A stretch of 35,822 bases of DNA from the IMG/VR virus record IMGVR_UViG_2681813232_000002. One strand, written 5' to 3'. The notes beneath the pieces were generated by a model. It searched no databases. It had not been told where the DNA came from and saw only the letters and a list, made by a program, of their open reading frames with translations. Made by a program: the position numbers and the translations under genes. The first letter of the stretch is position 1. The number at the start of each line of letters is the position of its first letter. This document shows positions 1,912-35,822 of this stretch, one piece after another. This DNA comes from a virus. Its lineage: Duplodnaviria; Heunggongvirae; Uroviricota; Caudoviricetes.

Positions 1912-2076
1912 TTAAAGGATAAAGGTATTCAAGCCTGACACATCATGCGCTGTATCGTCGCCGTATTCCCGTATTAACAGAGACCGTAGCCCGACGGGGA
2001 ACTCCTTCTGCGCGAGTGTGTGGGAATAATCAAAAACGATGCACACCGGGGTTACCGGGTACACATATTTCATCAT
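1912..2076 (-). CDS. Possible small ORF (54 aa), hypothetical
   Basis: Found by hand on the minus strand (MMKYVYPVTPVCIVFDYSHTLAQKEFPVGLRSLLIREYGDDTAHDVSGLNTFIL); below the 60-aa cutoff of the ORF track; no clear SD. Confidence 0.2.
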   Translation of the reverse strand: MMKYVYPVTPVCIVFDYSHTLAQKEFPVGLRSLLIREYGDDTAHDVSGLNTFIL

Positions 2077-2121
2077 GCCAGCGAGTCCGGTTCTGGCACG
2101 GAAGAAACCGGACGTTATGAT

Positions 2122-2532
2122 TTAGTGCGGAAATATTTGTGTAGTGTTCTGAATGTTCTCAGTAAAGAGTAATGAATTATCAAAGGTATAGTAATACCTT
2201 TTGTTTTCGTGGATATTTGTAATCCATCTGAAAACCCCTGCAGTAGCAAGATTTTTCCTGTATTCGTAAAATGATAACTCTCCTGATTTGAATCCTTTTA
2301 AGGTGGCTTCTATAAGGCATTTATTTTTTGAAAATCTTACATTTACAACCTTACCCTGTCCTTTTATTAAAACCGTATTATCGTTTTCAAGAACAAGATG
2401 AATATTCTCTGTAGCTAAATAGTAAATGTAATGTGAGACATTGTGACGTTTTAGTTCAGAATAAAACCAGTGATAGTTTAAATTATTTCGCACTTTATCG
2501 AATATTTGTTTAAAAATGGCAACCTGAGCCAT
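2122..2532 (-). CDS. DUF1398-family protein (YbcV/YdfO-like prophage accessory protein)
   Basis: AT-rich ORF. Start placed at the internal Met (MAQVAIFK...), which has SD GGAAGG 7 nt upstream and gives 136 aa. Sequence ([16 protein letters not shown]...[24 protein letters not shown]) matches my recollection of E. coli DLP12 YbcV. Confidence 0.6.
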
Positions 2533-2588
2533 TGTAGTACCTTCCATGTGATATGAGGGGCGTAGTCTGCACGATTATCTAAATTGCT

Positions 2589-2822
2589 TCAATCTGGTCT
2601 GATCTGTTTTCTGAGCAATTCAGTAATGTCACTCTTTTCTTTGTTTGCTTCAGGAGAAACTCTTTTTTCTGAGCACAGTCTCCGGCGGCAGGCTTCAATG
2701 ACCCAGGCTGAGAAATTCCCGGACCCTTTTTGATCAAGAGCGATGTTAATTTGTTCAATCATTTGGTTAGGAAAGCGGATGTTGCGGATTGTTGTTCTGC
2801 GGGTTCTGTTCTTCGTTGACAT
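2589..2822 (-). CDS. Small basic protein, YlcI/DUF3950-like, possibly ribbon-helix-helix
   Basis: 77-aa ORF (MSTKNRTRRTTIRNIRFPNQMIEQINIALDQKGSGNFSAWVIEACRRRL...). Same gene-order context as ylcI next to ybcV in DLP12. Confidence 0.45.
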   Translation of the reverse strand: MSTKNRTRRTTIRNIRFPNQMIEQINIALDQKGSGNFSAWVIEACRRRLCSEKRVSPEANKEKSDITELLRKQIRPD

Positions 2823-2989
2823 GAGGTTGTCCCGTATTCAGTGTCGCTGATTTGTATTGTCTGAAGTTGTTTTTACGTTAAGTTGATGCAGATCAATTAA
2901 TATGATACCTGCGTCATAATTGATTATTTGACGTGGTTTGATGGCGTAGATGCACGTTGTGACATGCAGATGATAATTATTATCATTTT

Positions 2990-3210
2990 GCGGGTCCTTT
3001 CCGGCGATCCGACAGGTTACGGGGCGGCGACCTCGCGGGTTTTCGCTATTTATGAAAATTTTCCGGTTTAAGGCATTTCCGTTCTTCTTCGTCGTAACTT
3101 AATGTTTTTATTTAAAATACCCCCTGAAAAGAAAGGAAACGACAGGTGCTGAAAACGAGCTTTTTGGCCTCTGTCGTTTCCTTTCTCTGTTTTTGTCCGT
3201 GGAATGAGCA
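2990..3210 (+). other. cos: Lambda-type cos site: 12-nt cohesive end GGGCGGCGACCT at 3022-3033, flanked by cosQ/cosB-like sequence up to the Nu1 start
   Basis: ...CCGACAGGTTACG|GGGCGGCGACCTCGCGGGTTTTCGCTATTTATGAAAATTTTCCGG... matches the joined right and left ends of lambda as I recall them. Confidence 0.85.
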
Positions 3211-3730
3211 ATGGAAGTCAACAAAAAGCAGCTGGCTGACATTTTCGGTGCGAGTATCCGTACCATTCAGAACTGGCAGGAACAGGGAATGCCCGTTCTG
3301 CGAGGCGGTGGCAAGGGTAATGAGGTGCTTTATGACTCTGCCGCCGTCATAAAATGGTATGCCGAAAGGGATGCTGAAATTGAGAACGAAAAGCTGCGCC
3401 GGGAGGTTGAAGAACTGCGGCAGGCCAGCGAGACAGATCTCCAGCCAGGGACTATTGAGTACGAACGCCATCGACTTACGCGTGCGCAGGCCGACGCACA
3501 GGAGCTGAAAAATGCCAGAGACTCCGCTGAAGTGGTGGAAACCGCATTCTGTACTTTCGTGCTGTCGCGGATCGCAGGTGAAATTGCCAGTATTCTCGAC
3601 GGGATCCCCCTGTCGGTGCAGCGGCGTTTTCCGGAACTGGAAAACCGACATGTTGATTTCCTGAAACGGGATATCATCAAAGCCATGAACAAAGCAGCCG
3701 CGCTGGATGAACTGATACCGGGGTTGCTGA

Positions 3731-3756
<26 letters not shown>
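3211..3756 (+). CDS. nu1: Terminase small subunit
   Basis: 181 aa, MEVNKKQLADIFGASIRTIQNWQEQGMPVL...; essentially identical to recalled lambda gpNu1; lies just downstream of cos. Confidence 0.97.
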
Positions 3757-7437
<3,681 letters not shown>

Positions 7438-22106: not shown

Positions 22107-22706
22107 ATGCGTAAACTTTATGCCGCCATTTTGTCCGCAGCCATTTGTCTGGCCGTATCCGGTGCGCCTGCATGGGCATCTGAACATCAGTCCACGCTGA
22201 GCGCGGGGTATCTTCATGCCCGGACCAACGTTCCCGGCAGCGATGATCTGAACGGGATTAACGTGAAATACCGTTATGAGTTTACGGACACACTGGGGCT
22301 GGTGACGTCATTCAGCTATGCAGGAGACAAGAATCGCCAGCTTACCCGTTACAGCGATACCCGCTGGCATGAAGATTCCGTTCGTAACCGCTGGTTCAGC
22401 GTAATGGCGGGGCCGTCTGTGCGCGTGAATGAATGGTTCAGCGCGTATGCGATGGCGGGTGTGGCTTACAGCCGTGTGTCGACTTTCTCCGGGGATTATC
22501 TCCGCGTAACTGACAACAAGGGGAAAACGCACGAAGTGCTGACCGGAAGTGATGACGGTCGCCACAGCAACACGTCTCTGGCGTGGGGGGCTGGCGTGCA
22601 GTTTAACCCGACCGAATCCGTGGCCATTGATATTGCTTATGAAGGCTCCGGCAGTGGCGACTGGCGCACTGACGGTTTCATCGTGGGTGTCGGTTATAAA
22701 TTCTGA
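22107..22706 (+). CDS. lom: Lom, outer-membrane beta-barrel protein of the Ail/Lom family
   Basis: 199 aa with signal peptide ([24 protein letters not shown]) and C-terminal ...VGVGYKF; lies after J as in lambda. Confidence 0.9.
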
Positions 22707-22764: not shown

Positions 22765-25700
22765 GTGAATATGGCAGTAAAGATTTCAGGTGTACTGAAA
22801 GACGGCGCAGGTAAACCGGTACAGAACTGCACAATCCAGCTGAAAGCAAAACGTAACAGCACCACGGTGGTGGCGAACACGGTGGCCTCAGAAAATCCGG
22901 ATGAAGCCGGGCGTTACAGCATGGACGTTGAGTACGGTCAGTACAGCGTTATTCTGTTGGTGGAAGGATTCCCGCCGTCACATGCCGGGACCATCACCGT
23001 GTATGAAGATTCTCAACCCGGTACGCTGAATGATTTTCTCGGTGCCATGACGGAGGATGATGCCCGTCCGGAGGCACTGCGCCGTTTTGAACTGATGGTG
23101 GAAGAGGTGGCGCGTAACGCGTCCGCAGTGGCGCAGAACACGGCAGCCGCGAAGAAGTCAGCCAGCGATGCCAGCACATCAGCCCGTGAGGCGGCAACCC
23201 GTGCGACTGATGCTGCAGGCTCAGCACGTGCAGCCAGCACGTCAGCCGGACAGGCCGCGTCGTCGGCTCAGTCAGCGTCTTCCAGCGCAGGAACAGCATC
23301 AACAAAGGCCACTGAAGCATCAAAAAGTGCTGCCGCCGCAGAGTCTTCAAAAAGCGCGGCAGCCACCAGTGCAGGTGCAGCGAAAACGTCGGAAATGAAT
23401 GCCGCAGCATCACAAAAATCTGCGGCCACATCTGCATCCACCGCGACCACGAAAGCGTCAGAAGCTGCCACCTCAGCCCGGGATGCGTCGGCTTCAAAAG
23501 TGGCGGCAAAATCATCAGAAACGAGCGCTGCCTCGAGCGCCGGCAGTGCAGCTTCCTCGGCAACGGCGGCAGGAAATTCCGCGAAGGCCGCAAAAACGTC
23601 TGAGACGAATGCGGATAACAGCGCACAGGCGGCAGCAGACTCACAAACTGCATCGGCAAACTCCGCGACAGCAGCCAAAAAATCAGAAACCAACGCGAAA
23701 AATAGTGAGGCAGCAGCAAAGGTCAGCGAAACCAACGCTAAAGCGTCAGAGAACAAGGCGAAAGAATATCTCGACAAGGTCGGGGGACTCGTCAGCCCGA
23801 TGACGCAATACGATTGGCCCGTTGTTACTGGTAATGAGTCTTTTTACATCAAGATCGCGAAACTTTCCGATCCCGGAAGCAACAATTGCCATGTAACGCT
23901 AATGGTTACTAATGCCGGTAACTACGGCTCCCCTTACGGAAACATTGACTTTATCGAGATCTCGGCGCGCGGTCTGCCTTCTTCGCTTACTGCGGATAAT
24001 GTATCCCGTTACCTGAGTATACGCCGCTTAGGGGCAACCGGGCTGACCGATGACAACCAGATGCGTTACGGCCTGGTTAAAGGTGATGGCTTTATTGAGG
24101 TTTGGGCCTTCCAGCGTGCATTTATCAACGGCGCAAAGGTTGCGGTACTGGCGCAGACGGCACGCACGGAATTATACATTCCAGACGGATTTGTTAAGCA
24201 AACCGCCGCGCCTTCTGGATATGTTGAAGGCAACGTTGTAAGGATTTACGACCAGGTAAACAAGCCGACTAAAGCAGATTTGGGTCTTTCTAATGCTATG
24301 CTTACAGGCGCTTTCGGTCTTGGCGGTAGCGGTCTTGTTTTGGATGGTAAAATGACCGATAAGGAACTACTACAAGAGCTAAGGGCGAAAGGTGGGTGTT
24401 TCTGGAGGTCAGGAAAACCAACAGGTAGCGAATCAACAATTTTCAGTCACGGTTCTGGTATATTCTCGCGGTGCGGCGATACGTGGTCAGCTATTAATAT
24501 CGATTACGAAAGCGGTAGAGTAAAGATTTACTCTAGTAACGATAATAGACTCAACAATGGTACTTTTAACATAAATGAGCTATACGGAACCAAATACAAG
24601 CCGTCGAAATCGGATGTTGGACTTAGCAATGTAACGAACGATGCGCAGGTAAAAAAAACCGGCGATATTATGTCAGGTGATCTGTCGATCACTAAAGCAA
24701 CACCTTCACTATACCTGCGTTCAAAAAGTGGAACCGCCCATGTATGGTTCCAAAATGAGGATCAGTCGGAACGCGGCGTTATTTTTGCGCCTACAAATAC
24801 TGATACGCTTGGCGAAGTTCACATCAGGGCTAAAAACGCAAAAGGTCAATCAAGTGGTGATTTTATTGTTCGTCACGACGGGATGGTAGAAGCCCTTAAT
24901 CTAAAAGTAACGAGAAAAATCAATGGAGCCACCGCAGAATTTGCAAACACAAGCACTAACTCCGATGATACCACGGTAAATATCAAAGGATCACAGCATA
25001 CGCCTTTGGTTTTAACGCGCAACAACACAATTAAAAACTTATCCATTGGGTTTAAGGTTGATGATGTTGATCAAAAATACCTGGGTATAGCTGGCGACGG
25101 TGATTTATATTTTGGTAGTTATTCTGACCACACAAAAAACAGCAAAGTGATCACACAAGCAAAACTAGATAGCGGGTTAACGGTAGGAGGTAAAACAACC
25201 TTTTCTGACCTTGCTACATTCAACGCAGGTATATCTGGAGCAATTGAACCTGAAAACATTTCTTCAGAGACTGTCGATCTTAATAATCTGACCATAAAAG
25301 ACACAGATAAAGGATCAGTTAAATACTATCAATGCAGAACTGCCGGAGGTGGTGCAAATATTACCAATAAGCCTGACGGCGTAGGCGGCAACTTTTTGCT
25401 TCGTGTAGAGTCAATTCGTAAGGTTAGTGATTCAGATTATATAAACATGCAAACGCTGATTAGCGGCGACAAAGGACGCGTGTATGTTCGTTTTGTTACT
25501 AATGGTAATTTTACAGCATGGAGCGAGCATGTTGTTTCAGGATGGAATCAGGATGTGACCGTCAGGTCGTTAACCTCGACGACTCCATCAAAATTAGGTG
25601 GCGGGCGGATTGATGTGCTTGGAAGTACGTCAGATTATGGCGAGATGAATTGTACTGTGCGTGGTGTTGATAGCACTGGAACTAATTCGGCGTGGTCTGT

Positions 25701-26529
25701 AGGTACATCAGAAAGCACAGGAAAAATGTTGTACCTGAAAAACCACAGAAGCAGCGCTCAAGTGCTGTTAAATGGCGATGATGGCGCGGTGCAACTACTA
25801 AGCGGTACTGTCAACGGTGCTACAGCACAGGCGCTAACCATCAACAAAGATGAGGTTAACTCAACTGTTAATTTAACCCTTACAAAACAATCAGGGACTG
25901 GCAATCGTTTTGTTTTACAGAACGCAGGTAATGCAGAACTACCGTTTTTTGTCAGTGTGTGGGGTTCCAGTACTCGACAAAACGTTCTTGAGGTTGGAAC
26001 GTCTGCTGCGTATCTGTTTTATGCGCAAAGAACGCCAGCAGGCCAGTTGTTTGATGTAAATGGCGCTATTAATTGCACAACGCTGAATCAGTCATCAGAC
26101 CGCGACCTTAAAGACGATATTCTCGTTATCAGCGACGCGACGAAAGCAATCCGTAAAATGAACGGATACACCTACACGCTCAGGGAAAACGGGATGCCTT
26201 ATGCTGGCGTTATTGCACAGGAAGTAATGGAGGCGATACCAGAAGCTGTGGGATCGTTTACTCATTACGGTGAAGAGTTGCAGGGACCAACGGTTGACGG
26301 CAACGAGCTACGCGAAGAAACGCGCTATCTTAATGTTGACTACGCCGCCGTGACGGGTTTACTTGTTCAGGTCGCCCGTGAAACAGATGATCGCGTTACC
26401 GCGCTGGAAGAGGAAAACACAACGCTACGTCAAAATCTGGCAACAGCAGGCACCCGGATCAGCACTCTGGAAAATCAGGTAAGCGAACTGGTTGCACTTG
26501 TCCGGCAGTTAACAGGAAGCGAACATTGA
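22765..26529 (+). CDS. stf: Side tail fibre protein (Stf-like), chimeric: lambda-Stf-like N-terminus, divergent distal region, C-terminal intramolecular-chaperone (peptidase S74-like) domain
   Basis: 1254 aa. N-terminus MAVKISGVLKDGAGKPVQNCTIQLKAKRNSTTV... matches recalled lambda Stf. Ala/Ser-rich repeat region follows. C-terminus has an S-D-R-D-L-K-D-D-I motif followed by a coiled-coil (LEEENTTLRQNL...LENQVSELVALVRQL). Confidence 0.9.
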   Translation: MNMAVKISGVLKDGAGKPVQNCTIQLKAKRNSTTVVANTVASENPDEAGRYSMDVEYGQYSVILLVEGFPPSHAGTITVYEDSQPGTLNDFLGAMTEDDARPEALRRFELMVEEVARNASAVAQNTAAAKKSASDASTSAREAATRATDAAGSARAASTSAGQAASSAQSASSSAGTASTKATEASKSAAAAESSKSAAATSAGAAKTSEMNAAASQKSAATSASTATTKASEAATSARDASASKVAAKSSETSAASSAGSAASSATAAGNSAKAAKTSETNADNSAQAAADSQTASANSATAAKKSETNAKNSEAAAKVSETNAKASENKAKEYLDKVGGLVSPMTQYDWPVVTGNESFYIKIAKLSDPGSNNCHVTLMVTNAGNYGSPYGNIDFIEISARGLPSSLTADNVSRYLSIRRLGATGLTDDNQMRYGLVKGDGFIEVWAFQRAFINGAKVAVLAQTARTELYIPDGFVKQTAAPSGYVEGNVVRIYDQVNKPTKADLGLSNAMLTGAFGLGGSGLVLDGKMTDKELLQELRAKGGCFWRSGKPTGSESTIFSHGSGIFSRCGDTWSAINIDYESGRVKIYSSNDNRLNNGTFNINELYGTKYKPSKSDVGLSNVTNDAQVKKTGDIMSGDLSITKATPSLYLRSKSGTAHVWFQNEDQSERGVIFAPTNTDTLGEVHIRAKNAKGQSSGDFIVRHDGMVEALNLKVTRKINGATAEFANTSTNSDDTTVNIKGSQHTPLVLTRNNTIKNLSIGFKVDDVDQKYLGIAGDGDLYFGSYSDHTKNSKVITQAKLDSGLTVGGKTTFSDLATFNAGISGAIEPENISSETVDLNNLTIKDTDKGSVKYYQCRTAGGGANITNKPDGVGGNFLLRVESIRKVSDSDYINMQTLISGDKGRVYVRFVTNGNFTAWSEHVVSGWNQDVTVRSLTSTTPSKLGGGRIDVLGSTSDYGEMNCTVRGVDSTGTNSAWSVGTSESTGKMLYLKNHRSSAQVLLNGDDGAVQLLSGTVNGATAQALTINKDEVNSTVNLTLTKQSGTGNRFVLQNAGNAELPFFVSVWGSSTRQNVLEVGTSAAYLFYAQRTPAGQLFDVNGAINCTTLNQSSDRDLKDDILVISDATKAIRKMNGYTYTLRENGMPYAGVIAQEVMEAIPEAVGSFTHYGEELQGPTVDGNELREETRYLNVDYAAVTGLLVQVARETDDRVTALEEENTTLRQNLATAGTRISTLENQVSELVALVRQLTGSEH
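23095..23760 (+). repeat. Low-complexity Ala/Ser/Thr-rich repeat region inside stf (GCx/TCx/ACx codon repeats)
   Basis: Protein segment ...SASDASTSAREAATRATDAAGSARAASTSAGQAASSAQSASSSAG... repeated over about 220 aa; it generates the many spurious overlapping ORFs on both strands here. Confidence 0.7.
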
Positions 26530-26712
26530 TATCCTTCAAGCTCTGAAGGAGGCTGTTCCCGGTACGTTCAGACTGTTGTTGAGCTGGAAATCGCAACGGA
26601 GGAAGAGAAAGCGTTACTGGCCGCATGGAAAAAGTATCGGGTGTTGCTGAACCGTGTTGATACATCAACTGCACCTGATATTGAGTGGCCGGAAGAACCA
26701 GACACAATGTAA
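26530..26712 (+). pseudogene. Remnant 3' end of a tail-fibre assembly (tfa) gene, no start codon
   Basis: Directly after the stf stop the same frame stays open for 60 codons, ending ...[45 protein letters not shown], the conserved C-terminal signature of Tfa proteins as I recall it. No ATG or SD. Confidence 0.45.
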
Positions 26713-27246
26713 GCGAAAAAGAAAAACCGCAGACACGACGTATGCAGGACGTGCTGCGGTTGGCTGGTGAACTTCCGATAGTGCGAGTATTGAATGATTT
26801 CAAGCTGTTATCGATTTTACGTATTTTTGTATGAGAGGATTTCCACCACCTCCCACCGACCATCTAAGACTTTATGCCACTGTCCCTAGGACTGCTATGT
26901 ACTAGGAGCGGATGTTAAACTCAGACTCGTTTCAGCTACATTGCGTTTTGAATAATATTCCATCATAATAACTCTTTGAAAAATGTGATCTTTTCATTTA
27001 TAACACTGATGACTTGCTTATCTCATTGGGATATCGGAGGAGAATACTTAACTATGACAAGCCCGATTATTATGACACTGGCTATATTATATAGATTGAT
27101 ATTAAAATGTAGGATTAGGTTCTTGCCAAGGTGTCAAGATTTACAGATAGGTTTAAAACCATATAAATATGTTTTACGGTGAGATACAATACATATTGTA
27201 AGGCATAAACGCTTGGTAAAATTTTAATTATTGGAAGAAGCTAATC

Positions 27247-30200
27247 ATGGAACCCATATCAATTACAGTGGCAACTTATGTAGCAACTAAACTTATTGAT
27301 CAATTCATCTCTCAAGAAGGATATGGTTGTATTAAGAAAGCATTATTCCCCCAAAAAAGATATGTGGATAGATTATATCAACTAATTGAAGAGACGGCAA
27401 TTGAGTTTGAAGAAACATATCCAGTAGAAAGTGGAGCAATACCATTTTATCATTCCGAACCATTGTTTGAGATGTTGAATGAGCACATCTTTTTTAAAGA
27501 GTTCCCTGACAAAGAGATATTATTAGACAAGTTCAAAGAATATCCAAGTATCACTCCCCCAACTCAACAACAACTCAGCCTTTTTTATGAGATGTTATCA
27601 TTAAAAATCAATAATTGTTCGAAGTTAAAAAAGCTACATATCGAAGAAACGTATAAAGAAAAAATATTCGATATTAATGAAGAGCTCATTCAAGTCAAAC
27701 TTATTTTACGGTCTATAGATGAGAAACTAACTTTTCACTTAAGTGATGGTTGGTTAAATGAAAAAAATAGTCAAGCAATAGCTGACTTGGGAGGTCGATA
27801 CACACCCGAACTCAACGTAAAGCTAGAAATAGCAGAGATATTTGATGGCCTCGGTAGAACTAATGATTTTTCTAAAATATTTTATTCGCATATAGATAGC
27901 TTTCTGGTCGCTGGAAAGAAATTACATAGTTGCGATGTAATTTCCTCAGAATTATTTGAAATAAACCAGTCCTTAAAAGAAATTTCTGATATATATCAGG
28001 AGATTAATTTTTCTAAATTAGATGAAATCCCTATAAATAAATTTAATAACTATGTTTCTAGCTGCCAGACAGCTATTGGCGGAGCGGTATCAATATTGTG
28101 GGAACTCCGAGAAAAGTCAGAGCAAGTAGGTGAAACCAAGCATTACAGTGATAAGTATTCATCTACTCTGCGAATGCTTCGGGAATTTGACTATGCGTGC
28201 AATGAATTACGTATATTCATTAATTCAACAACAGTGAAGTTGGCTAACAACCCATTCTTACTTCTCGAAGGAAAAGCAGGAATTGGTAAGTCTCATTTAC
28301 TGGCTGATGTGATTAAAAATCGAATTGCTTCTGGGTATCCTTCACTACTCATACTAGGGCAACAACTTACTTCAGATGAATCTCCATGGTCACAAATCTT
28401 CAAGAGATTACAGCTTAAAATCACTTCTCGTGAATTCCTAGAAAAACTGAATTTATATGGCAAAAAAACAGGAAAAAGAGTCTTAGTTTTTATTGATGCT
28501 ATTAATGAAGGTAATGGAAATAAATTCTGGAATGACAATATTAACAGTTTTGTCGATGAAATCAGATGCTTTGAATGGCTTGGTCTGATAATGTCAGTCA
28601 GAACAACATATAGAAATGTAACAATTTCACATGAGAATGTTGTGCGAAATAATTTTGAAATTCATGAACATATTGGATTCCAGAACGTTGAGTTGGAAGC
28701 GGTTAGTCTATTTTATGATTATTACAATATTGAGAGGCCTTCATCTCCTAACCTTAATCCAGAGTTTAAAAATCCTCTATTTCTTAAGTTATTGTGTGAA
28801 GGCATTAAGAAAAATGGTTTAACCAAAGTGCCTGTTGGATTTAATGGGATTTCAAATATTTTTAACTTTTTAGTTGAAGGGGTAAATAAATCATTAGCAT
28901 CGCCAAAAAAATATGCATTCGATCCCAGTTTTCCTCTTGTTAAAGATGCTCTCAATGAAATCATAAAATTCAAATTAGAGATTGGTCGTAATAGTATTTC
29001 ACTTAAAGATGCTCACTCAGTGGTTCAATCTGTAGTTAATGATTATGTTGCTGATAAAACCTTCCTCAGCGCCTTGATTGACGAAGGATTATTGACTAAA
29101 GGCATAGTGAGAAATGATGATAATTCTACTGAGGAAGTAGTTTATGTGGCTTTTGAAAGGTTTGATGATCATTTAACTGTTAATTTTTTATTAAATGATG
29201 TTGAAAATATCGAAAGTGAATTTAAGCCTGATGGTCGTCTGAAAAAATATTTTCATGATGAATGTGATTTTTATATAAAATCGGGAATAGTAGAGGCGTT
29301 GTCTATTCAATTGCCAGAAAGGTATGAAAAAGAGCTTTATGAATTTCTGCCGGAGTTCAGCAATAATCTTAAATTACTAGAAGCCTTTATTGATAGCTTG
29401 ATATGGCGCGATATTAAGGCTATTGATTTCGAAAAAATTAGACCTTTCATCAATGAACATGTTTTTAAATTTAAAGATAGTTTTGATCATTTCCTCGAGG
29501 CAGTGATCTCTATTTCAGGTTTAGTTGGCCATCCCTTTAATGCTAATTTCTTGCATGATTGGCTAAAAGATTATTCTTTGGCAAATCGAGATTCGTTTTG
29601 GACTACAGAACTTAAATATAAATATAGTGAAGACTCAGCATTTAGGCATCTAATCGATTGGGCATGGGCCAGAACAGATAAAAGCTTTGTTTCGGATGAG
29701 TCAATCGAGCTAGTTGCAACTAGTTTATGCTGGTTTTTAACTTCTAGTAACCGAGAACTTCGAGATTGCTCAACTAAGGCTTTAGTGAGTTTACTCGAGC
29801 CAAGAATTCCTGTATTGAGAAAAATAATTGATAAGTTTTATGGTGTAAATGATCCTTACGTTTGGGAAAGAATATTTGCAGTTGCATTAGGCTGTACATT
29901 GCGAACTGATAATATTAAAGAACTAAAATATTTAGCCGAAACTGTTTACCAAAAGGTATTTTGTTCTAAGTATGTGTATCCAAATATATTACTTAGAGAT
30001 TATGCTAGAGAGATTATTGAATTTGCTAATCATCTTGGATTGGAACTTGAAAGCATTGAATTATCCAAGACTAGACCACCCTACAACAGCATTTGGCCTG
30101 ACAAGATTCCTTCAAAAGAGGAACTAGAGTCCCTTTATGATAAAGAACCTTATCGGGAACTCTGGAGCTCTATTATGGAAGATGGTGACTTTTCACGATA

Positions 30201-31701
30201 TACTATTGGAACAAATTATAATCATTCTGATTGGTCTGGTTGCAAGTTTAATGAAACCCCTGTTGACCGTAAGCAAGTTTTTAAAACTTTCAAATGTAAA
30301 CTAACTGATCAACAAAAAGACTTGTATGATGCCACAGATCCTTTCATTTATGATGATAAATGCGAAGGAATTAAATTTGGTCGTGTGGTCGGTAGAAAAG
30401 CACAGGAAGAAATAAAGGCGAGCAAGAAATTATTTAAGAATTCATTGTCATACGATCTGTTAAGTGAGTTTGAAAATGAAATAGAGCCATACCTGGATCA
30501 TAATAATAATCTGCTGGAAACTGATAAACACTTTGATCTTCGACTAGCTCAACAATTTATATTCAATCGTGTTATAGAGCTTGGTTGGGATCCGGAGAAG
30601 CATGGTAATTTTGACCAACAAATAGGAACTGGACGTGGACGTAGAGAGGCATTCCAAGAACGGATTGGTAAAAAATACCAATGGATTGCTTATTATGAAT
30701 ACATGGCAAGGCTAGCCGATAATTTTACTCGTTTTGAAGGTTATGGTGACGAACGAAAGGAAAATCCATACCAAGGGCCATGGGAGCCTTACGTAAGAGA
30801 TATAGATCCCACTATCTTACTTAAAGAAACTGGAACGAAAAAAATAAGCAATAAAGAAATGTGGTGGCTTAATGATGAAGTGTTTGATTGGACTTGCTCT
30901 AATGAAGACTGGGTTAAAAGTTCTACTACTATAACTAATTCATATGCTTTTATTGAAGTTAAAGATGATAATGGTGATGAATGGATAGTATTAGAAAGTC
31001 ATCCATCATGGAAAGAACCAAAAATTATTGGAAACGATGATTGGGGGCACCCACGAAAAGAGGTTTGGTATCAGATCAGAAGTTATATCGTTAAAGTTGA
31101 AGAATTTGAAAATTTTAGATGTTGGGCAATAGCTCAAGACTTTATGGGCAGGTGGATGCCGGAATGTACTGATAGATACCAATTATTTAATAGGGAGTAC
31201 TATTGGTCCGAAGCATTTAAGTCTTTTAAATCAGATTATTATGGTGGATCTGACTGGACTTCGGTAACAGACCGGGAGTCTGGAGCTAAGATAGCTGATG
31301 TTAGTGTCACTTCGATTAATTATTTGTGGGAAGAGGAGTTCGACAAATCAAAAATAGAAACTTTGAATTTTTTGAAGCCTAGTAACTTAATCTTTGAAAA
31401 GATGGGATTAAAAAGTGGGGAAGTAGAGGGTAGCTTCAATGATGAAAATGGAACTATGGTTTGCTTTGCAGCTGAAGCTGTATATGCTTCAAAGCCGCAT
31501 CTACTTGTTAAAAAAGAACCATTTTTAACAATGTTAAGGGACAATGGTTTTGAAATCGTTTGGACATTATTAGGTGAAAAGGGCGTTATAGGGGGCTCAC
31601 TCATATCAAGTCATCATTATGGTCGACAGGAGTTTAGTGGAGCATTTTATTATGAAGACAGTCAGCTAACAGGAAGTCATAAAACTAGCTTTACGAGATA
31701 A
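27247..31701 (+). CDS. Large P-loop NTPase (STAND/NACHT-like Walker A and B), 1484 aa; candidate single-gene anti-phage defence protein
   Basis: Strong SD (GGAAGAAG) 7 nt upstream of the ATG. Walker A FLLLEGKAGIGKSHLLADV (about residue 335); Walker B RVLVFIDAINEG (about residue 410). Visibly AT-rich compared with the flanking phage genes. Sits in the b-region position between the tail fibre and attR. Confidence 0.85.
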   Translation: MEPISITVATYVATKLIDQFISQEGYGCIKKALFPQKRYVDRLYQLIEETAIEFEETYPVESGAIPFYHSEPLFEMLNEHIFFKEFPDKEILLDKFKEYPSITPPTQQQLSLFYEMLSLKINNCSKLKKLHIEETYKEKIFDINEELIQVKLILRSIDEKLTFHLSDGWLNEKNSQAIADLGGRYTPELNVKLEIAEIFDGLGRTNDFSKIFYSHIDSFLVAGKKLHSCDVISSELFEINQSLKEISDIYQEINFSKLDEIPINKFNNYVSSCQTAIGGAVSILWELREKSEQVGETKHYSDKYSSTLRMLREFDYACNELRIFINSTTVKLANNPFLLLEGKAGIGKSHLLADVIKNRIASGYPSLLILGQQLTSDESPWSQIFKRLQLKITSREFLEKLNLYGKKTGKRVLVFIDAINEGNGNKFWNDNINSFVDEIRCFEWLGLIMSVRTTYRNVTISHENVVRNNFEIHEHIGFQNVELEAVSLFYDYYNIERPSSPNLNPEFKNPLFLKLLCEGIKKNGLTKVPVGFNGISNIFNFLVEGVNKSLASPKKYAFDPSFPLVKDALNEIIKFKLEIGRNSISLKDAHSVVQSVVNDYVADKTFLSALIDEGLLTKGIVRNDDNSTEEVVYVAFERFDDHLTVNFLLNDVENIESEFKPDGRLKKYFHDECDFYIKSGIVEALSIQLPERYEKELYEFLPEFSNNLKLLEAFIDSLIWRDIKAIDFEKIRPFINEHVFKFKDSFDHFLEAVISISGLVGHPFNANFLHDWLKDYSLANRDSFWTTELKYKYSEDSAFRHLIDWAWARTDKSFVSDESIELVATSLCWFLTSSNRELRDCSTKALVSLLEPRIPVLRKIIDKFYGVNDPYVWERIFAVALGCTLRTDNIKELKYLAETVYQKVFCSKYVYPNILLRDYAREIIEFANHLGLELESIELSKTRPPYNSIWPDKIPSKEELESLYDKEPYRELWSSIMEDGDFSRYTIGTNYNHSDWSGCKFNETPVDRKQVFKTFKCKLTDQQKDLYDATDPFIYDDKCEGIKFGRVVGRKAQEEIKASKKLFKNSLSYDLLSEFENEIEPYLDHNNNLLETDKHFDLRLAQQFIFNRVIELGWDPEKHGNFDQQIGTGRGRREAFQERIGKKYQWIAYYEYMARLADNFTRFEGYGDERKENPYQGPWEPYVRDIDPTILLKETGTKKISNKEMWWLNDEVFDWTCSNEDWVKSSTTITNSYAFIEVKDDNGDEWIVLESHPSWKEPKIIGNDDWGHPRKEVWYQIRSYIVKVEEFENFRCWAIAQDFMGRWMPECTDRYQLFNREYYWSEAFKSFKSDYYGGSDWTSVTDRESGAKIADVSVTSINYLWEEEFDKSKIETLNFLKPSNLIFEKMGLKSGEVEGSFNDENGTMVCFAAEAVYASKPHLLVKKEPFLTMLRDNGFEIVWTLLGEKGVIGGSLISSHHYGRQEFSGAFYYEDSQLTGSHKTSFTR

Positions 31702-31802
31702 AAATGAATCTCAGAGCTGAATATATAAGTAGTATTAGAAACCGGGTTATACTTAAGAAATCAATCTTAAGTGTGGCAGTCGAATGGTAGCTAATATGCT
31801 AG

Positions 31803-31838
31803 CGGCGCTAATGCCTGTTTGTTGCTCATAACAGGCAT
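31803..31838 (+). terminator. Possible hairpin terminator downstream of the large NTPase gene
   Basis: AATGCCTGTT-TGTTGCTCAT-AACAGGCATT inverted repeat followed by a T-containing tract; weak. Confidence 0.3.
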
Positions 31839-32084
31839 TCACTTTAGTTATGGCAGAAAAGTATACATGCTGGGTTGGGAAAGTGTGAAAGAAAGGAAGA
31901 TTGCTGCGCCGTTTGTCGTCACGTTTATCTTCATTGGCTATGCAAGTCGTAATAAAAGGTGGGACAAAACTGAGACACATAAAGCCTCGCAATGGCTTGC
32001 AAGGCTTTACATGTTTTGATGTGGTGGGATGTGTGAGCGCAGTGTTGATGGGGTAATGCTTTGAATTAGAAGCGGATTCTTATA

Positions 32085-32130
32085 ATTCGTAATGCGAAGG
32101 TCGTAGGTTCGACTCCTATTATCGGCACCA
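32085..32130 (+). repeat. 46-bp copy of the 3' end of tRNA-Thr(CGU) (thrW-type), ending in CCA; att core duplicate (probable prophage attR), not a functional tRNA
   Basis: ATTCGTAATGCGAAGGTCGTAGGTTCGACTCCTATTATCGGCACCA matches the anticodon-loop to 3' end of E. coli tRNA-Thr(CGU) as recalled. The D-arm and 5' acceptor strand are absent upstream. Confidence 0.8.
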
Positions 32131-32294
32131 TCACCTAGTTTTCCCAAGTCAACCCACATCAACAAAATCATTTAAAAACATATATATTACGTTGTTTTCA
32201 TACGTTTGAGGTCAACCCTTGTCTCTTGAAATCAACACGCGGTTGGGGGCACAATCAGGGGCATGTTCTGTTCGATCTAGGAAATGTGCCCCCA

Positions 32295-33485
32295 ATGATG
32301 CTGAATGCCCGCAAGGTTGAAGCTGCGAAAGGAAAAGAGAAGAGCTACAAGCTGTTTGATGGAGGTGGCCTATACCTTCAGGTCGAACCTAATGGCTCGC
32401 GTTACTGGCGTATGAAATACCGTTTTGCTGGTAAAGAGAAACGATTGTCCTTTGGTGTTTATCCAACAGTCACACTTGCTGATGCCAGACAAAAACGAGA
32501 AGACGCGAAGAAACTACTCGCAGCAGGTGAAGATCCCGGCGAAGTCAAAAAAGCCAAAAAGCAGGCTTTAAATGCAGCGAGTGAGACACTTAACCCATTC
32601 AGAGAAGTGGCGTTAGAGTGGCACAAAATGAAATCACCCAAATGGTCTGAGGGCTATGCTTCCGACATCATTGAGGCATTCGAGAAAGACATTTTCCCGC
32701 ATATTGGGCACAGACCTATAGCTGATATTCAGCCCCTTGAACTGCTTGAAGTTCTGAGGTTGATAGAAGCTCGAGGCGCTATGGAGAAAGCGAAGAAAGT
32801 CCGTCAGCGATGCGGTGAAGTTTTTCGCTATGCCATCGTAACGGGTAGGGCAATCTACAATCCGGCACCGGATCTTGCCAGTGCGATGCAAGGACATGAA
32901 GCAGTCCACTATCCATTCCTCAAAGCCAACGAACTACCGGAGTTCTTTAATGCCCTTAATTCTTATTCAGGAAGTCCAATTGTATTGTTGGGGGCGCATT
33001 TACTTATCCTGACAGGTCTACGAACTGGAGAACTACGAGCAGGTGAGTGGCGAGAGGTGGATTTTGATAATGCGGTGTGGGAGATCCCAAAAGAACGTAT
33101 GAAAATGCGTAGGAGCCATATTGTCCCGTTGTCAAAACAAGCATTATCCCATCTCAAAAGTTTGAAAGAACTAACTGGGAACTACCCGCTGATGTTCCCT
33201 GGACGCAACGATCCCAGCAAATTTATGAGTGAAGCAAGCATTAATCAGGTGTTTAAACGTATTGGATATGCAGGGCGTGTTACGGGGCATGGTTTCAGGC
33301 ATACGATGAGTACAATCCTACATGAGAAAGGATTTAACAGCGCTTGGATTGAAACCCAGCTTGCTCATTCGGACAAAAACTCTATTCGTGGAATTTATAA
33401 CCATGCCCAATATCTCGAAGGGAGAAGAGAAATGATGCAATGGTATGCTAATTATTTATCTGAGCAAATTGGTACTCATAAATGA
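32295..33485 (+). CDS. int: Tyrosine recombinase/integrase, P4-like (genomic-island type)
   Basis: MMLNARKVEAAKGKEKSYKLFDGGGLYLQVEPNGSRYWRMKYRFAGKEKRLSFGVYPTVTLADAR... is the typical P4-type N-terminal arm-binding domain. C-terminal catalytic region has R...HGFRHT...Y-like motifs. The ORF track starts at 32226 but there is no ATG before 32295. Confidence 0.9.
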   Translation: MMLNARKVEAAKGKEKSYKLFDGGGLYLQVEPNGSRYWRMKYRFAGKEKRLSFGVYPTVTLADARQKREDAKKLLAAGEDPGEVKKAKKQALNAASETLNPFREVALEWHKMKSPKWSEGYASDIIEAFEKDIFPHIGHRPIADIQPLELLEVLRLIEARGAMEKAKKVRQRCGEVFRYAIVTGRAIYNPAPDLASAMQGHEAVHYPFLKANELPEFFNALNSYSGSPIVLLGAHLLILTGLRTGELRAGEWREVDFDNAVWEIPKERMKMRRSHIVPLSKQALSHLKSLKELTGNYPLMFPGRNDPSKFMSEASINQVFKRIGYAGRVTGHGFRHTMSTILHEKGFNSAWIETQLAHSDKNSIRGIYNHAQYLEGRREMMQWYANYLSEQIGTHK

Positions 33486-34306
33486 ATATTTTAAAAATTA
33501 ATAATACTGATTCTCTGCTCAGAGATTACTACCAGTTGGATGAAGCTTCAGAAAAAATTGGTTGTAGTGAAAAGGATATACTCTGGTTTGCCAGAGAACG
33601 AGATGTAGAGCTATGCATGGAATTCCATGATGATGAGTATGATGTTTCATGTGGTTTGAAGATTGATGGTCAAATAGATGAGTTCTTATCTAATCTGAAA
33701 TATTTACCACGAGATAGAAATGGCAATATTATGTTGTCAGACTTAAGTTCTATAAGAATCCCTGATGAAGATAATTTAATTGATAAAAATGGTTTTATTC
33801 GATGCTTCATATCCGGTTTATGGGCTGTTGATTATGAATATAAAGATCTGTTAGTTAAGCATGAGGGGCAACCGGATTCCTGGCCTATTCATTTTCTACT
33901 GGCGGGTACGCCTAATATAAATTGTAAGGTAATTCTTTATGTAAATTATGATGAAAAAGAAAATTATTATCTTTTTGAGGTTTTGTGGATTACAAAGGTA
34001 CAGATTCAAAAATTCATTGATATAGTCTTATGCGAACAAAAGCGGATAAAAAACGCCAATAAATATAAATCACAATCTGAGGCGCAAAAACAAAAACATG
34101 CTGTTCCTCGAGCTGAAATACTCATGGCTATTATTTCGCTCTATCATCGTGATATGAGGCTAAGAAGAGAGAGTCCAGCAGCGATAGCTGATTATCTTTT
34201 TCAACATGCCAGTGAGTTCTGGCCTAAGACCGGAGAACCGCCTTTGAGCTATGATACTGTTGTTAGTTTGCTACGTAGTTGCATGAAAAACATTAAGTTT
34301 AACTAA
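33482..34306 (+). CDS. Hypothetical protein, AT-rich, translationally coupled to the integrase (ATGA overlap)
   Basis: 274-aa ORF with markedly AT-rich codon usage; no family recognised. Confidence 0.7.
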   Translation: MNILKINNTDSLLRDYYQLDEASEKIGCSEKDILWFARERDVELCMEFHDDEYDVSCGLKIDGQIDEFLSNLKYLPRDRNGNIMLSDLSSIRIPDEDNLIDKNGFIRCFISGLWAVDYEYKDLLVKHEGQPDSWPIHFLLAGTPNINCKVILYVNYDEKENYYLFEVLWITKVQIQKFIDIVLCEQKRIKNANKYKSQSEAQKQKHAVPRAEILMAIISLYHRDMRLRRESPAAIADYLFQHASEFWPKTGEPPLSYDTVVSLLRSCMKNIKFN

Positions 34307-34431
34307 ATATTAACAATTGTTGTGGCTAATGATTTTGAATTTTTTTCATTAGTCACATTTTTCTCATTTATAACCTATGTTTTAATTTTCCGTGTTGAAG
34401 CCAATAGACTTAGATAAACGGAGAATGATGA

Positions 34432-34722
34432 ATGTTATCTAAACATGATAATACTACTTTGCAACGACCTTCAATGGATTCTCTGATCGATATGAAGTTT
34501 ATTACTTCCGATTGTTTATTAAGTGATAAATGGATTTATCGATTGATTTCTCTGAATCGCTTTCCAAAACCTATAAAAATAGGTCGGATGTCACGATGGC
34601 GCGCTGCTGATTATTATAAGTGGCGAGATGGGTTTGAAGAAAACTCAGGTCAACAGTTTGAGGGGATGAGAAATAAGGCAAGAGCAATTAATAAAGGGAA
34701 TAGATTATCACCTACTCCCTAA
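34432..34722 (+). CDS. alpA: AlpA-family (phage_AlpA) helix-turn-helix regulator / excisionase-like protein
   Basis: Segment DMKFITSDCLLSDKWIYRLISLNRFPKPIKIGRMSRWRAADYYKWRD fits the AlpA pattern (HTH, FPKP.K.G, W..E...W). Start codon uncertain (34432, 34474 or 34492). Confidence 0.6.
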   Translation: MLSKHDNTTLQRPSMDSLIDMKFITSDCLLSDKWIYRLISLNRFPKPIKIGRMSRWRAADYYKWRDGFEENSGQQFEGMRNKARAINKGNRLSPTP

Positions 34723-34754
34723 GCCTTAATTGATAGTTAGTAATATTTAACTGA

Positions 34755-34929
34755 TTAGCCTTTAGGGTCAATCCCGCGTGATTGGAGTTCTTTGCGTAAA
34801 ATTCTTTTAATCCAAGTTGCCAACGCGCTATCTCCATCTTTGCGCATTTCGTTTTCGAGTTGCAACCTAAAATCGTCGGTAAGACGCATTTGGAATGGTG
34901 GAGAACGTTTCTCTTGTGGTGTTGACATG
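34755..34929 (-). pseudogene. Arc-like ribbon-helix-helix repressor gene, apparently disrupted by a 1-nt frameshift
   Basis: From ATG (34929) the frame reads MSTPQEKRSPPFQMRLTDDFRLQ then shifts. The -1 frame continues LENEMRKDGDSALATWIKRILRKELQSRGIDPKG to a TAA. The joined sequence has an Arc-like strand-helix-helix pattern. Shift is at a T-run near 34860-34862. Confidence 0.35.
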
Positions 34930-34951
34930 GTAATTACCCTAGAATATGATG
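34923..34951 (+). promoter_or_regulatory. Candidate sigma70 promoter: TTGACA, 17-nt spacer, TATGAT, reading rightward
   Basis: TTGACA at 34923-34928, 17-nt spacer, TATGAT at 34946-34951; near-consensus hexamers. Confidence 0.5.
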
Positions 34952-34967
34952 ACTACATGGTAATTAC
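34930..34967 (+). promoter_or_regulatory. Two copies of the perfect 10-bp palindrome GGTAATTACC flanking the -10 (candidate operators)
   Basis: ACATGGTAATTACC occurs at 34926-34939 and 34954-34967; the palindrome cores are 28 bp apart centre to centre. Confidence 0.45.
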
Positions 34968-35059
34968 CATTGTAAGTATAGTTCGCTTGTAAAAGCAATG
35001 CCCGATTGTGCGGGAACACAAATCGGGCATTTAACCAACCGTTATAAGAGGTAACGAAG

Positions 35060-35236
35060 ATGGCTAAACAGAAGTGTACCTGGTTATTTGCGGCGATCAA
35101 CCGCAGTCAACGCAATGCCCGTCCTGTGATGTTAAGGATCACCGCAGATAACGAGCGGTCAGCGCGGCGCAGACTTGCCCCGGACTATGTACTGAGCTTT
35201 GCCGGGCGCATTCCCTGCGGAGGTGAACATGCGTAA
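35060..35236 (+). CDS. Small ORF (58 aa), hypothetical; first gene downstream of the candidate promoter
   Basis: SD GAGG 7-8 nt upstream of the ATG (MAKQKCTWLFAAINRSQRNARPVMLRITADNERSARRRLAPDYVLSFAGRIPCGGEHA). Its stop overlaps the next start. Below the ORF-track cutoff. Confidence 0.4.
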   Translation: MAKQKCTWLFAAINRSQRNARPVMLRITADNERSARRRLAPDYVLSFAGRIPCGGEHA

Positions 35237-35588
35237 TTATCCGCATCCCGGCGAACGCTGGCAGCATGAACGTGGCTGGACGGTCACGATTATCCGATTA
35301 ATAGAAGCCTCGCCCTCTGTGGCGCTGGTTAATCCTGAATTCAGCTGTGAAGTGCTGATACGTCATGACAGCGACAACCAGCTTTCTTCCTGCCCTCTGG
35401 CATGGTTTGAACAGCGATATACGCGCCTGTTTGATGTACCGCTCTTTAAGCCTGCACCAGCTCCTGCAGGCGGTAGTGGTTCCGGCCCGCTGACACTGCA
35501 TCCGTCTGTGCTATTTATCCGCTGGCGGGAGCGTAGCATATGGCGTTCTGCTGAGCCTGATGACGGTCACTATTCAAAGTTTCTCTGA
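35229..35588 (+). CDS. Hypothetical protein (119 aa)
   Basis: Strong SD GGAGGTG just upstream of ATG 35229 (MRNYPHPGERWQHERGWTVTII...). The ORF track starts at 35199 but the internal start has the better RBS. Confidence 0.55.
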   Translation: MRNYPHPGERWQHERGWTVTIIRLIEASPSVALVNPEFSCEVLIRHDSDNQLSSCPLAWFEQRYTRLFDVPLFKPAPAPAGGSGSGPLTLHPSVLFIRWRERSIWRSAEPDDGHYSKFL

Positions 35589-35618
35589 CACAATACCGCT
35601 GAAAACGGAGTAATCCAC

Positions 35619-35822
35619 GATGAATATTTCAAACGGGCACAACGGTGCTCAGGGCCACACTTTGCCTGAAAAACACAATACCGGTGTTTTTGCCTATGGG
35701 TTGTCAGAGGACCGTTTCGGAAAGCTGACCCGCGCAAGAAATGCCTGCGACATGCTCCAGCTTCTCTTTTCTGAATACCCGTCTCAGGCCGGAGCACTGG
35801 ACACTGGCTGTGCGCATGGTGT
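35619..35822 (+). CDS. Hypothetical protein, 3'-truncated by the window edge
   Basis: ATG at 35619 (MNISNGHNGAQGHTLPEKHNTGVFAYGLSEDRFGKL...); frame open to the end of the window. Confidence 0.45.

Follow-up and report, generated by a model that had tools for sequence, protein, structure and literature searches.

A probable avs2 moron cassette in the b region of a thrW-integrated lambda-type prophage

Introduction

What occupies the AT-rich stretch that separates the tail fibre genes of this prophage from its right attachment site, and is it part of the prophage at all? The question is raised by a window of 35,822 nucleotides (the whole stretch of viral DNA analysed; IMG/VR record IMGVR_UViG_2681813232_000002), in which a first-pass annotation had singled out positions 26713-32084 as a horizontally acquired moron cassette in the b region, with one convincing gene, a large NTPase, set between long non-coding flanks. 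Overall, this interpretation is partly supported. The block is very probably an avs2 moron cassette of ~4.9 kb (26913-31814), with one intact gene, seated in the b-region slot of a thrW-integrated lambda-type prophage. The feature is real, but ordinary and largely known; it mainly confirms that temperate phages hold a swap-in slot for anti-phage genes beside the attachment site. The exact borders of the slot, defined here by homologues of lambda 24162-24348 and 27333-27505, provide usable anchors for cataloguing the b-region cargo of E. coli. Finding the textbook EcAvs2 in its natural vehicle also raises the question of how a terminase sensor coexists with the terminase of its own carrier.

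The cassette gene and its product

The only convincing gene in the cassette is avs2 (27247-31701, + strand), which encodes a protein of 1484 amino acids. All other open reading frames lying within 26713-32084 are at most 94 amino acids long. Two small frames were examined and rejected as genes: 26459-26863 (- strand), which has no match in Pfam, PADLOC, NCBIfam or PHROGs, and 26976-27182 (+ strand), which has no PHROGs match. The earlier reading of a single large NTPase gene can be sharpened, as the product is, judged by its sequence, the known anti-phage sensor EcAvs2. It scores 1689.6 bits with NCBIfam NF041813 (cut-off 1000), covering profile positions 1-1317 of 1317, and 1751 bits with the PADLOC Avs2 profile. 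Aligned over residues 1-1484 with chain A of PDB 9O4E, the cryo-EM structure of terminase-bound EcAvs2 (Evans et al. 2026, PMC13601566), it is identical at 1483 of 1484 positions; the sole difference is G168 in the window for D168 in the structure, located between the effector and the ATPase. The protein is also identical to WP_061359862.1 in a relative (L001).

EcAvs2 is composed of an N-terminal effector, a helical extension, a STAND ATPase (with Walker A residue K348), a TPR domain and a C-terminal sensor. In the window protein the Walker A motif GKAGIGKSH occupies residues 342-350, as in 9O4E, and residues 325-388 give a weak match to the Pfam family nSTAND6. The TPR and sensor region (residues 950-1484) is 100% identical to that of the structure. 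All of the named Walker A, bridging-ATP and interface residues (PMC13601566) are found in the window protein, those conserved with 9O4E being K348, D981, T1128, R1130, R1132, W1266, E1362, E1364, E1444 and E1462. The N-terminal 332 residues have no Pfam match at E≤10, which fits the description of this effector in the literature as uncharacterised, and no PHROGs family matches the gene. Homologues with 70-80% amino acid identity are found in Serpens, Aeromonas, Cycloclasticus, Shewanella and Colwellia.

Base composition of the block

GC content along the window falls from 0.55-0.61 at 3.5-21 kb to 0.32-0.37 over 27000-31500, and the lowest of all 5-kb stretches begins at 26901. The block was proposed to be far more AT-rich than the lambda-like structural genes, and this holds: the interval 26713-32084 has a GC content of 0.350, compared with 0.54-0.59 for the lambda-type head and tail genes. 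The cassette stands at 0.34, a refined span (26826-31814) at 0.344 against 0.57 for the phage backbone, and the 421-bp 5′ flank of avs2 (26826-27246) at 0.347. Codon usage deviates likewise; avs2, with a GC content of 0.343, has a GC3 of 0.266, compared with 0.61-0.69 in the genes for gpA, portal, capsid, tape measure and J. H-NS had been suggested as a likely silencer of the block, and a search of the window for the H-NS motif TCGATAAATT, allowing ≤2 mismatches, returned 33 matches where 33.4 were expected, that is, no enrichment beyond composition.

This composition need not reflect a recent import. Homologues of avs2 with 70-96% amino acid identity hold a gene GC content of 0.35-0.37, while their host flanks range from 0.36 to 0.61, and because of this AT-richness is not a clean sign of a low-GC donor. 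It has some chance, short of even, of being a property intrinsic to avs2 and maintained in it, rather than the footprint of recent arrival from such a donor; the possible purposes of such maintenance, keeping the expression of a toxic gene low or subjecting it to xenogeneic silencing, are put forward with the same reserve. The constancy of the homologues speaks for this idea, but the same pattern would be expected from frequent horizontal transfer that left no time to ameliorate. The two explanations are not exclusive, and foreign cargo is compatible with both.

Borders of the cassette and the variable slot

On its left the cassette is preceded by the side tail fibre gene stf (22765-26529, + strand; Pfam phage_tail_N, 2e-71), with a C-terminal S74 self-chaperone domain (Peptidase_S74, 9e-12), which is a neighbour and not cargo. 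It is followed by the tfa remnant named in the first-pass annotation (26567-26711, + strand), in which only the final ~44 codons of a gene for tail fibre assembly are left. Its status as a remnant is borne out by Caudo_TAP, a profile of 131 positions of which 26578-26712 covers just 90-130 (E 6e-21), by 86% identity with lambda tfa 22412-22535 and by the RefSeq label ‘missing N-terminus’; phage mEp460 carries the same scar. A search of Rfam with 26400-32300 (E≤1) gave a lone match, IS009 over the end of stf and the tfa remnant, which is below threshold (81.5 versus 117 bits) and was set aside as DNA homology rather than RNA.

The cassette is bracketed by DNA that belongs to the phage. The left linker (26727-26912) is 88.8% identical to lambda 24162-24348 (E 2e-64) and is found in three relatives that lack Avs2 (L003, L005 and L006); in mEp460 it extends as far as ~26826. 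The right linker (31815-32020), conserved b-region DNA beside attP, matches lambda 27333-27505 over 31824-32008 with 74.6% identity (E 3e-30) and phage 21 with 86.7% identity, where it lies ~460 bp downstream of int; it is common to thrW-type and icd-type prophages. Beyond it, a thrW-specific att arm (32021-32084) is kept in thrW-integrated prophages and in phage phi458, and is replaced in an icd-integrated prophage. Since the two linkers match lambda on either side of ea31 and ea59, the block lies inside the prophage. The AT-rich core of the block as first drawn therefore stands, whereas ~200 bp on its left (26727-26912) and ~270 bp on its right (31815-32084) are not cargo, because the linker and att-arm DNA is common to relatives without Avs2.

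Within these limits, avs2 is flanked by an AT-rich leader (26913-27246, + strand) and a cassette-specific 3′ tail (31702-31814). In each of the five E. coli or Escherichia contexts avs2 is accompanied by the leader (92-100% identity), which is missing beside more distant homologues. The leader is the presumed location of the avs2 promoter; a consensus scan of 26913-27246 gave no + strand sigma-70 site. By eye, the best candidate in the leader is a weak TTTACA-16-TATAAA at 27140-27167.

The inverted repeats reported for the non-coding flanks were confirmed, although the outer parts of those flanks proved to be conserved phage DNA. A post-tfa hairpin (26725-26761; -19.4 kcal/mol, z -2.1) is contained in the left linker. 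A second (31810-31839; z -1.8) straddles the right border, its left arm in the cassette tail and its right arm in the conserved linker. A third (31975-32014) has an 18-bp stem whose - strand fold reaches -27.4 kcal/mol (z -4.7), and its terminator-like match is likewise on the - strand; the + strands of the second and third are without strong T-runs. An identity of the third hairpin with lambda tI/sib was considered and could not be established, its lambda homologue (~27466-27500) lying just beyond the terminator-like hairpin 27535-27574, which we take to be tI. The two cassette junctions have no repeat of ≥8 nt in common, whether direct or inverted, and no transposon-like ends were found there.

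A comparison of the same locus in relatives revealed that the cargo is variable. Among 955 E. coli genomes that have the thrW attR arm, 87 carry Avs2 upstream of it; in the remaining 868 Avs2 is lacking and homology to the window begins at 31804-31827. Other occupants of the slot include a hypothetical gene in phi458, GIY-YIG and AraC genes with an IS remnant in O157:H7, IS1 with a hypothetical gene, and a restriction endonuclease with a recombinase fragment. Deviant composition, lambda-homologous flanks and variable cargo together uphold the proposal of a horizontally acquired moron cassette in the b region.

Distribution and integrity of the cassette

The unit of leader, avs2 and tail also occurs behind pinE in a thrW prophage without satellite (L009) and within the complete icd-integrated lambdoid prophage of strain C4 (L010). 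ATCC 43886 and NCTC9087 are further examples of carrier strains. None of 50,697 phage records and none of 72,556 plasmid records contains it; among E. coli RefSeq plasmid records, one matches the cassette. That avs2 might be silent or decaying baggage, without current function in a defective prophage, could be suggested by this absence from phage records and by the heavy degradation of one carrier (the prophage in L009). This is nevertheless improbable. The open reading frame in the window is intact, and five homologous copies are each full length at 1484 codons and stop-free, with 0-78 of 1484 residues changed relative to the window protein. Furthermore, the protein is near-identical to a cloned one with demonstrated defence activity (PMC13601566), and the lambda-type late-gene frames of the window, from Nu1 (3211-3756) to stf, are uninterrupted and of expected sizes.

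The attachment site and the neighbouring satellite

The right end of the prophage is marked by an att core (32085-32131, + strand), and its proposed derivation from a tRNA gene was verified: it comprises the 3′ 47 nt of tRNA-Thr (thrW), with 100% identity to annotated tRNA-Thr genes. ARAGORN found no whole tRNA in the window. The other end of the prophage lies beyond the window; in the relative MB07152 (L001/L007), which matches the window exactly in its Avs2 protein and left flank, the element spans from an intact tRNA-Thr gene (thrW) and a tyrosine integrase gene to the att core. Two elements use this core: for the lambdoid prophage it is attR, and for a P4-like satellite, which starts directly on its right at 32132, it is the left att. 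The satellite integrase (32226-33485, + strand; Pfam Arm-DNA-bind_3, Phage_int_M and Phage_integrase) is context and not cargo, and in one relative (L002) the satellite continues with Icd, primase, Psu, Delta and Drt3a/b.

Since thrW acts as a stacking site here, with the satellite directly after the att core, and since the block shares its AT-richness with many islands, it could be read as an integrative island in its own right, whole or remnant, that forms a tandem at thrW as the satellite does. This reading is largely refuted and thus very unlikely: the window has only one thrW core, with no further copy between tfa and avs2, the block is without an integrase, both of its flanks are homologues of the lambda b region, and the complete icd prophage and the satellite-less thrW prophage have this cassette in the corresponding position. 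Functional ownership of Avs2 by the adjacent satellite, as cargo beyond its att site, is hardly credible, for although avs2 adjoins the satellite integrase and P4-like satellites are known to carry defence genes (Drt3 and SIR2 in relatives), avs2 lies outside the satellite att core, its block is constant across genomes while satellites vary, and L009 and L010 have Avs2 without any satellite, which refutes the idea.

Proposed role and coexistence with the carrier terminase

With avs2 placed as cargo of the lambdoid prophage, its role can be considered from what is known of EcAvs2. The TPR domain and C-terminal sensor of EcAvs2 bind the ATPase domain of the large terminase of an incoming phage, a contact sealed by a bridging ATP, and binding leads via the STAND ATPase (Walker A K348) to an ATP-dependent, flat C4 tetramer (PMC13601566). 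Cells die when EcAvs2 is expressed together with a trigger terminase, and the effector is of a rarer, non-nuclease type (PMC13601566). Both phage defence and triggering by terminases would carry over to the window allele from this EcAvs2, which differs from it by one residue. Phages with known sensitivity to EcAvs2 include T7, PhiV-1, ZL19 and Pal009. In the lysogen, a dedicated promoter within the AT-rich leader would drive avs2. The unusual and apparently non-enzymatic effector may work by proximity-induced oligomerisation, possibly at the membrane, and death of the cell ahead of phage release would amount to abortive infection. The gene may in this way help the prophage by excluding competing phages, and the cassette could move between prophages by recombining through the conserved linkers on either side of the slot.

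The carrier prophage has a large terminase of its own (gpA, 3731-5656), and Avs2 occurs together with an own GpA-family terminase, without whose expression the phage could not reproduce, in apparently complete lambda-type prophages of the window, MB07152 (700-aa terminase) and strain C4. EcAvs2, for which 37 terminases were tested, responds to very diverse large terminases (PMC13601566), and the terminase of the carrier should be a potential trigger. A specific self-tolerance arrangement between EcAvs2 and the GpA-type terminase of its carrier is conceivable, if somewhat doubtful. GpA-type terminases might be structurally invisible to EcAvs2, leaving the host armed only against other packaging types, or the prophage might shut off or neutralise Avs2 upon induction. 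If GpA does trigger EcAvs2, the cassette would amount to a lock on the side of the host, and induction of its own carrier would be abortive.

Comparison with known systems

The closest known system is EcAvs2 itself (AVAST type 2, 9O4E), the same protein but for the substitution of G168 for D168. EcAvs2 is also the subject of Gao et al. (2020 and 2022). No description of its lambdoid-prophage setting was found in the literature examined.

In position, the cassette corresponds to the b region of lambda (ea47, ea31 and ea59), a non-essential region between tfa and attP. The lambda linkers bracket ea31 (HNH endonuclease) and ea59 (AAA ATPase). The cargo is unrelated; avs2 lies on the late-gene (+) strand, whereas the ea genes of lambda are on the - strand. 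Furthermore, the left linker of the window directly adjoins tfa without an ea47 segment, and the att specificity is for thrW rather than attB-lambda. In lambdoid phages, the morons of Hendrix and colleagues are extra genes inserted where relatives have the flanking sequences side by side or parted by other DNA. The cassette resembles them in its deviant base composition and in the hairpins at its borders; a moron further has an autonomous promoter and terminator and is active in the repressed prophage, and here the weak TTTACA-16-TATAAA is at most a candidate promoter.

A comparable arrangement is that of mcrA, an AT-rich defence gene (GC 0.38) in the cryptic prophage e14 of E. coli K-12, which has the tail-fibre/pinE module on one side and icdC, the attR remnant, on the other. 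In strain C4, the Avs2 cassette of the icd prophage is placed by the same logic. No linker homology was found around mcrA in K-12 e14, so that the comparison is positional only, and its mode of defence, type IV restriction, differs from that of Avs2. The P2 and P4 hotspots are said by Rousset et al. (2022) to be fixed slots between conserved genes that hold alternative anti-phage systems. The present locus is likewise a fixed slot in a mobile element; unlike them, it is carried by a lambdoid prophage and placed between tfa/pin and attR, whilst the neighbouring P4-like satellite has a separate hotspot of its own. Finally, KpAvs2 is a terminase-sensing member of the same Avs2 family, but its effector is an Mrr-like nuclease and it is accompanied by two accessory genes (Bechon et al. 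2024, PMC11564622), whereas avs2 in the window stands alone and has a non-nuclease effector.

The cargo gene

The first-pass annotation had marked 26713-32084 as an AT-rich block with a single convincing gene, and both points stand. Computed GC across this interval is 0.350, as against 0.54-0.585 (GC3 0.61-0.69) for gpA, portal, capsid, tape measure and J; in a 1-kb sliding profile the head and tail genes lie at 0.55-0.61 and 27000-31500 at 0.32-0.37, and the 5-kb minimum of GC among all such stretches of the window begins at 26901. The only long ORF, 27247-31701 (+), encodes 1484 aa; the remaining ORFs of the interval do not exceed 94 aa, and two small ones scanned against protein families matched none. 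The long ORF is identified by profile score as Avs2 (NCBIfam NF041813, 1689.6 bits, cut-off 1000; PADLOC Avs2 model, 1751 bits). In a PDB search, its residues 1-1484 align with chain A of 9O4E, in which the molecule is named Avs2 and which fits the EcAvs2-terminase cryo-EM complex of Evans et al. 2026 (PMC13601566); no difference occurs within residues 950-1484, and elsewhere the only one seen is G168 in the window for D168. Together, the family scores and this alignment identify the protein, at sequence level, as the already characterised EcAvs2.

Avs2 homologues in other genera have gene GC of 0.35-0.37 whatever the GC of their flanks (0.36-0.61), so the AT-richness of avs2 (GC 0.343, GC3 0.266) appears to be a trait of the gene family and an unreliable pointer to a donor. 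Full-length homologues of 70-80% identity occur in Serpens, Aeromonas, Cycloclasticus, Shewanella and Colwellia. The proposed H-NS silencing is a plausible prediction from the composition of a 34% GC cassette.

Borders and position of the cassette

On the right flank, alignment with four thrW-site relatives without Avs2 (phage phi458, an O157:H7 strain and two others) finds unrelated DNA to ~31814 and then near-identity through the end of the tRNA core. A search of every complete E. coli genome found this attR arm, the DNA next to the core, in 955, and in the 868 of these without Avs2 homology begins at 31804-31827. On the left, phage mEp460, with the same S74-type stf and tfa scar and no Avs2, is 95% identical to ~26826, and three further relatives without Avs2 have 26723-26916 in common with the window. 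Lambda 24162-24348 matches window 26727-26912 (88.8% identity) and lambda 27333-27505 matches 31824-32008 (74.6%); these segments bracket ea31 and ea59, both left of attP at 27724. These comparisons place the cassette at ~26913-31814, where the b region of lambda has ea31 and ea59. Of the non-coding flanks previously assigned to the cargo, the inner parts (leader, 26913-27246; tail, 31702-31814) are retained, whilst the outer parts are conserved phage DNA, seen in relatives without Avs2 and in lambda.

The tfa remnant was confirmed: Caudo_TAP aligns with 26578-26712 through its final third alone (positions 90-130 of 131, E 6e-21), and the same segment shares 86% identity with lambda tfa at its 3' end. 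Within 22765-26711, the side tail fibre gene (stf) ends in a Peptidase_S74 self-chaperone domain, with the tfa behind it cut to its last 44 codons. As mEp460 has the same stf/tfa arrangement, the scar arrived with the fibre type and is older than the Avs2 insertion. Rfam gives an IS009 match where stf ends and the tfa remnant lies (26469-26669, +), below threshold at 81.5 bits against a gathering score of 117; this is probably shared prophage DNA and no RNA gene.

The reported inverted repeats are present at 26725-26761, 31810-31839 and 31975-32014. The last, in the right linker, has an 18-bp stem and a minus-strand fold of -27.4 kcal/mol (z -4.7). It is kept in lambda (~27466-27500), phage 21 and thrW-type and icd-type prophages, and is terminator-like on the strand from which int would be transcribed in the circular phage; the matching stretch of phage 21 is ~460 bp downstream of int. 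This conserved hairpin may act as an insulator or int terminator.

The att core was also correctly recognised as tRNA-derived: 32085-32131 reproduces exactly the last 47 nt, at the 3' end, of annotated tRNA-Thr genes and is single-copy within the window, where no complete tRNA was found. The MB07152 prophage carries an identical Avs2 with a 100% identical left flank, and runs from proA and an intact tRNA-Thr through integrase, recombination, immunity, replication, Q, lysis, head, tail, stf, tfa remnant and avs2 to a thrW 3' copy, followed by a P4-like satellite. The window has the same join, with a P4-type integrase and an AlpA-like gene after the core. Since the MB07152 element extends from intact tRNA to 3' copy around avs2, the cassette is placed inside the prophage.

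The start of the satellite, in tandem at the same core, occupies 32132-35822 and contains the integrase (32226-33485), the AlpA-like HTH gene (34432-34722) and a phrog_30862 ORF (35199-35588). ORF 33482-34306 (+; 274 aa, GC 0.344) overlaps the integrase stop; it has no significant match in Pfam, NCBIfam, PADLOC or PHROGs, is hypothetical in RefSeq, and represents an AT-rich gene that does not lie in the known P4 hotspot. In the relative DETEC-E223, this satellite runs on through Psu, Delta and Drt3a/b as far as the chromosomal yagP/paoD flank, where it ends. Defence cargo differs among related satellites at this site (Drt3a/b, a SIR2 protein, annotated ABC-three component system proteins).

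Variability and mobility

In phi458 the slot is occupied by one unknown gene, and in O157:H7 by GIY-YIG, AraC and an IS remnant; one strain has IS1 and an unknown gene there, and another a restriction endonuclease with a recombinase fragment. With Avs2 lacking from 868 of the 955 attR-arm genomes, the cargo is variable between related prophages. An acquired moron in the b region is thus supported by foreign GC, placement between lambda linkers and a variable slot. GC drops a second time, to 0.38 at 2001-3000, where the lysis genes give way to Nu1; this AT-rich dip contains a DUF1398 gene in reverse orientation (2122-2547, -) and looks like another moron.

The Avs2 cassette occurs in 88 of 5426 genomes, and with leader and tail in three settings. 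At thrW it follows either tfa or, without a satellite, the pinE of a degraded e14-like element; the third setting is a complete lambda-type prophage that has integrated into icd. As no repeats of 8 nt or more are common to both junctions, the cassette would most simply be exchanged through recombination within the conserved linkers. None of the phage records contained the cassette, although thin sampling means that little can be read from this.

Mechanism and the carrier's own terminase

EcAvs2 responds to a wide range among 37 very divergent terminases, via their ATPase domain, through an interface sealed with a bridging ATP, and terminase binding yields a flat C4 tetramer (PMC13601566). K348A abolishes defence, and the effector, at the N-terminus, belongs to a rarer kind that is apparently non-enzymatic (PMC13601566). 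For a protein one residue off the window's, co-expression with a trigger terminase was toxic and T7, PhiV-1, ZL19 and Pal009 were countered (PMC13601566). Because no promoter in the 334-bp leader attains the scan threshold, we can only infer that avs2 is transcribed from within it; the transcript would end at the hairpins, and the lysogen would gain from exclusion of other phages.

The window prophage encodes a lambda-type Nu1 and a 641-aa GpA terminase (3211-5656), and the MB07152 and C4 carriers have GpA-family terminases too. Despite the wide terminase range of EcAvs2, a GpA-family large terminase is present in all three apparently complete Avs2-bearing prophages examined (window, 3211-5656; MB07152, 8581-11177; C4, 21321-23766). 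The Avs2 literature searched contained no mention of lambda-type terminases or self-tolerance.

Comparison with known systems

The gene is the already known EcAvs2, and defence genes are familiar cargo at the ends of prophages. What the analysis usefully adds is the exact borders of the slot and the finding that EcAvs2 resides together with its carrier phage's own terminase. In lambda, the slot that Avs2 fills here is filled by ea31 (annotated HNH endonuclease) and ea59 (annotated AAA ATPase) at 24509-26973, a pairing that presumably resembles a two-gene defence system.
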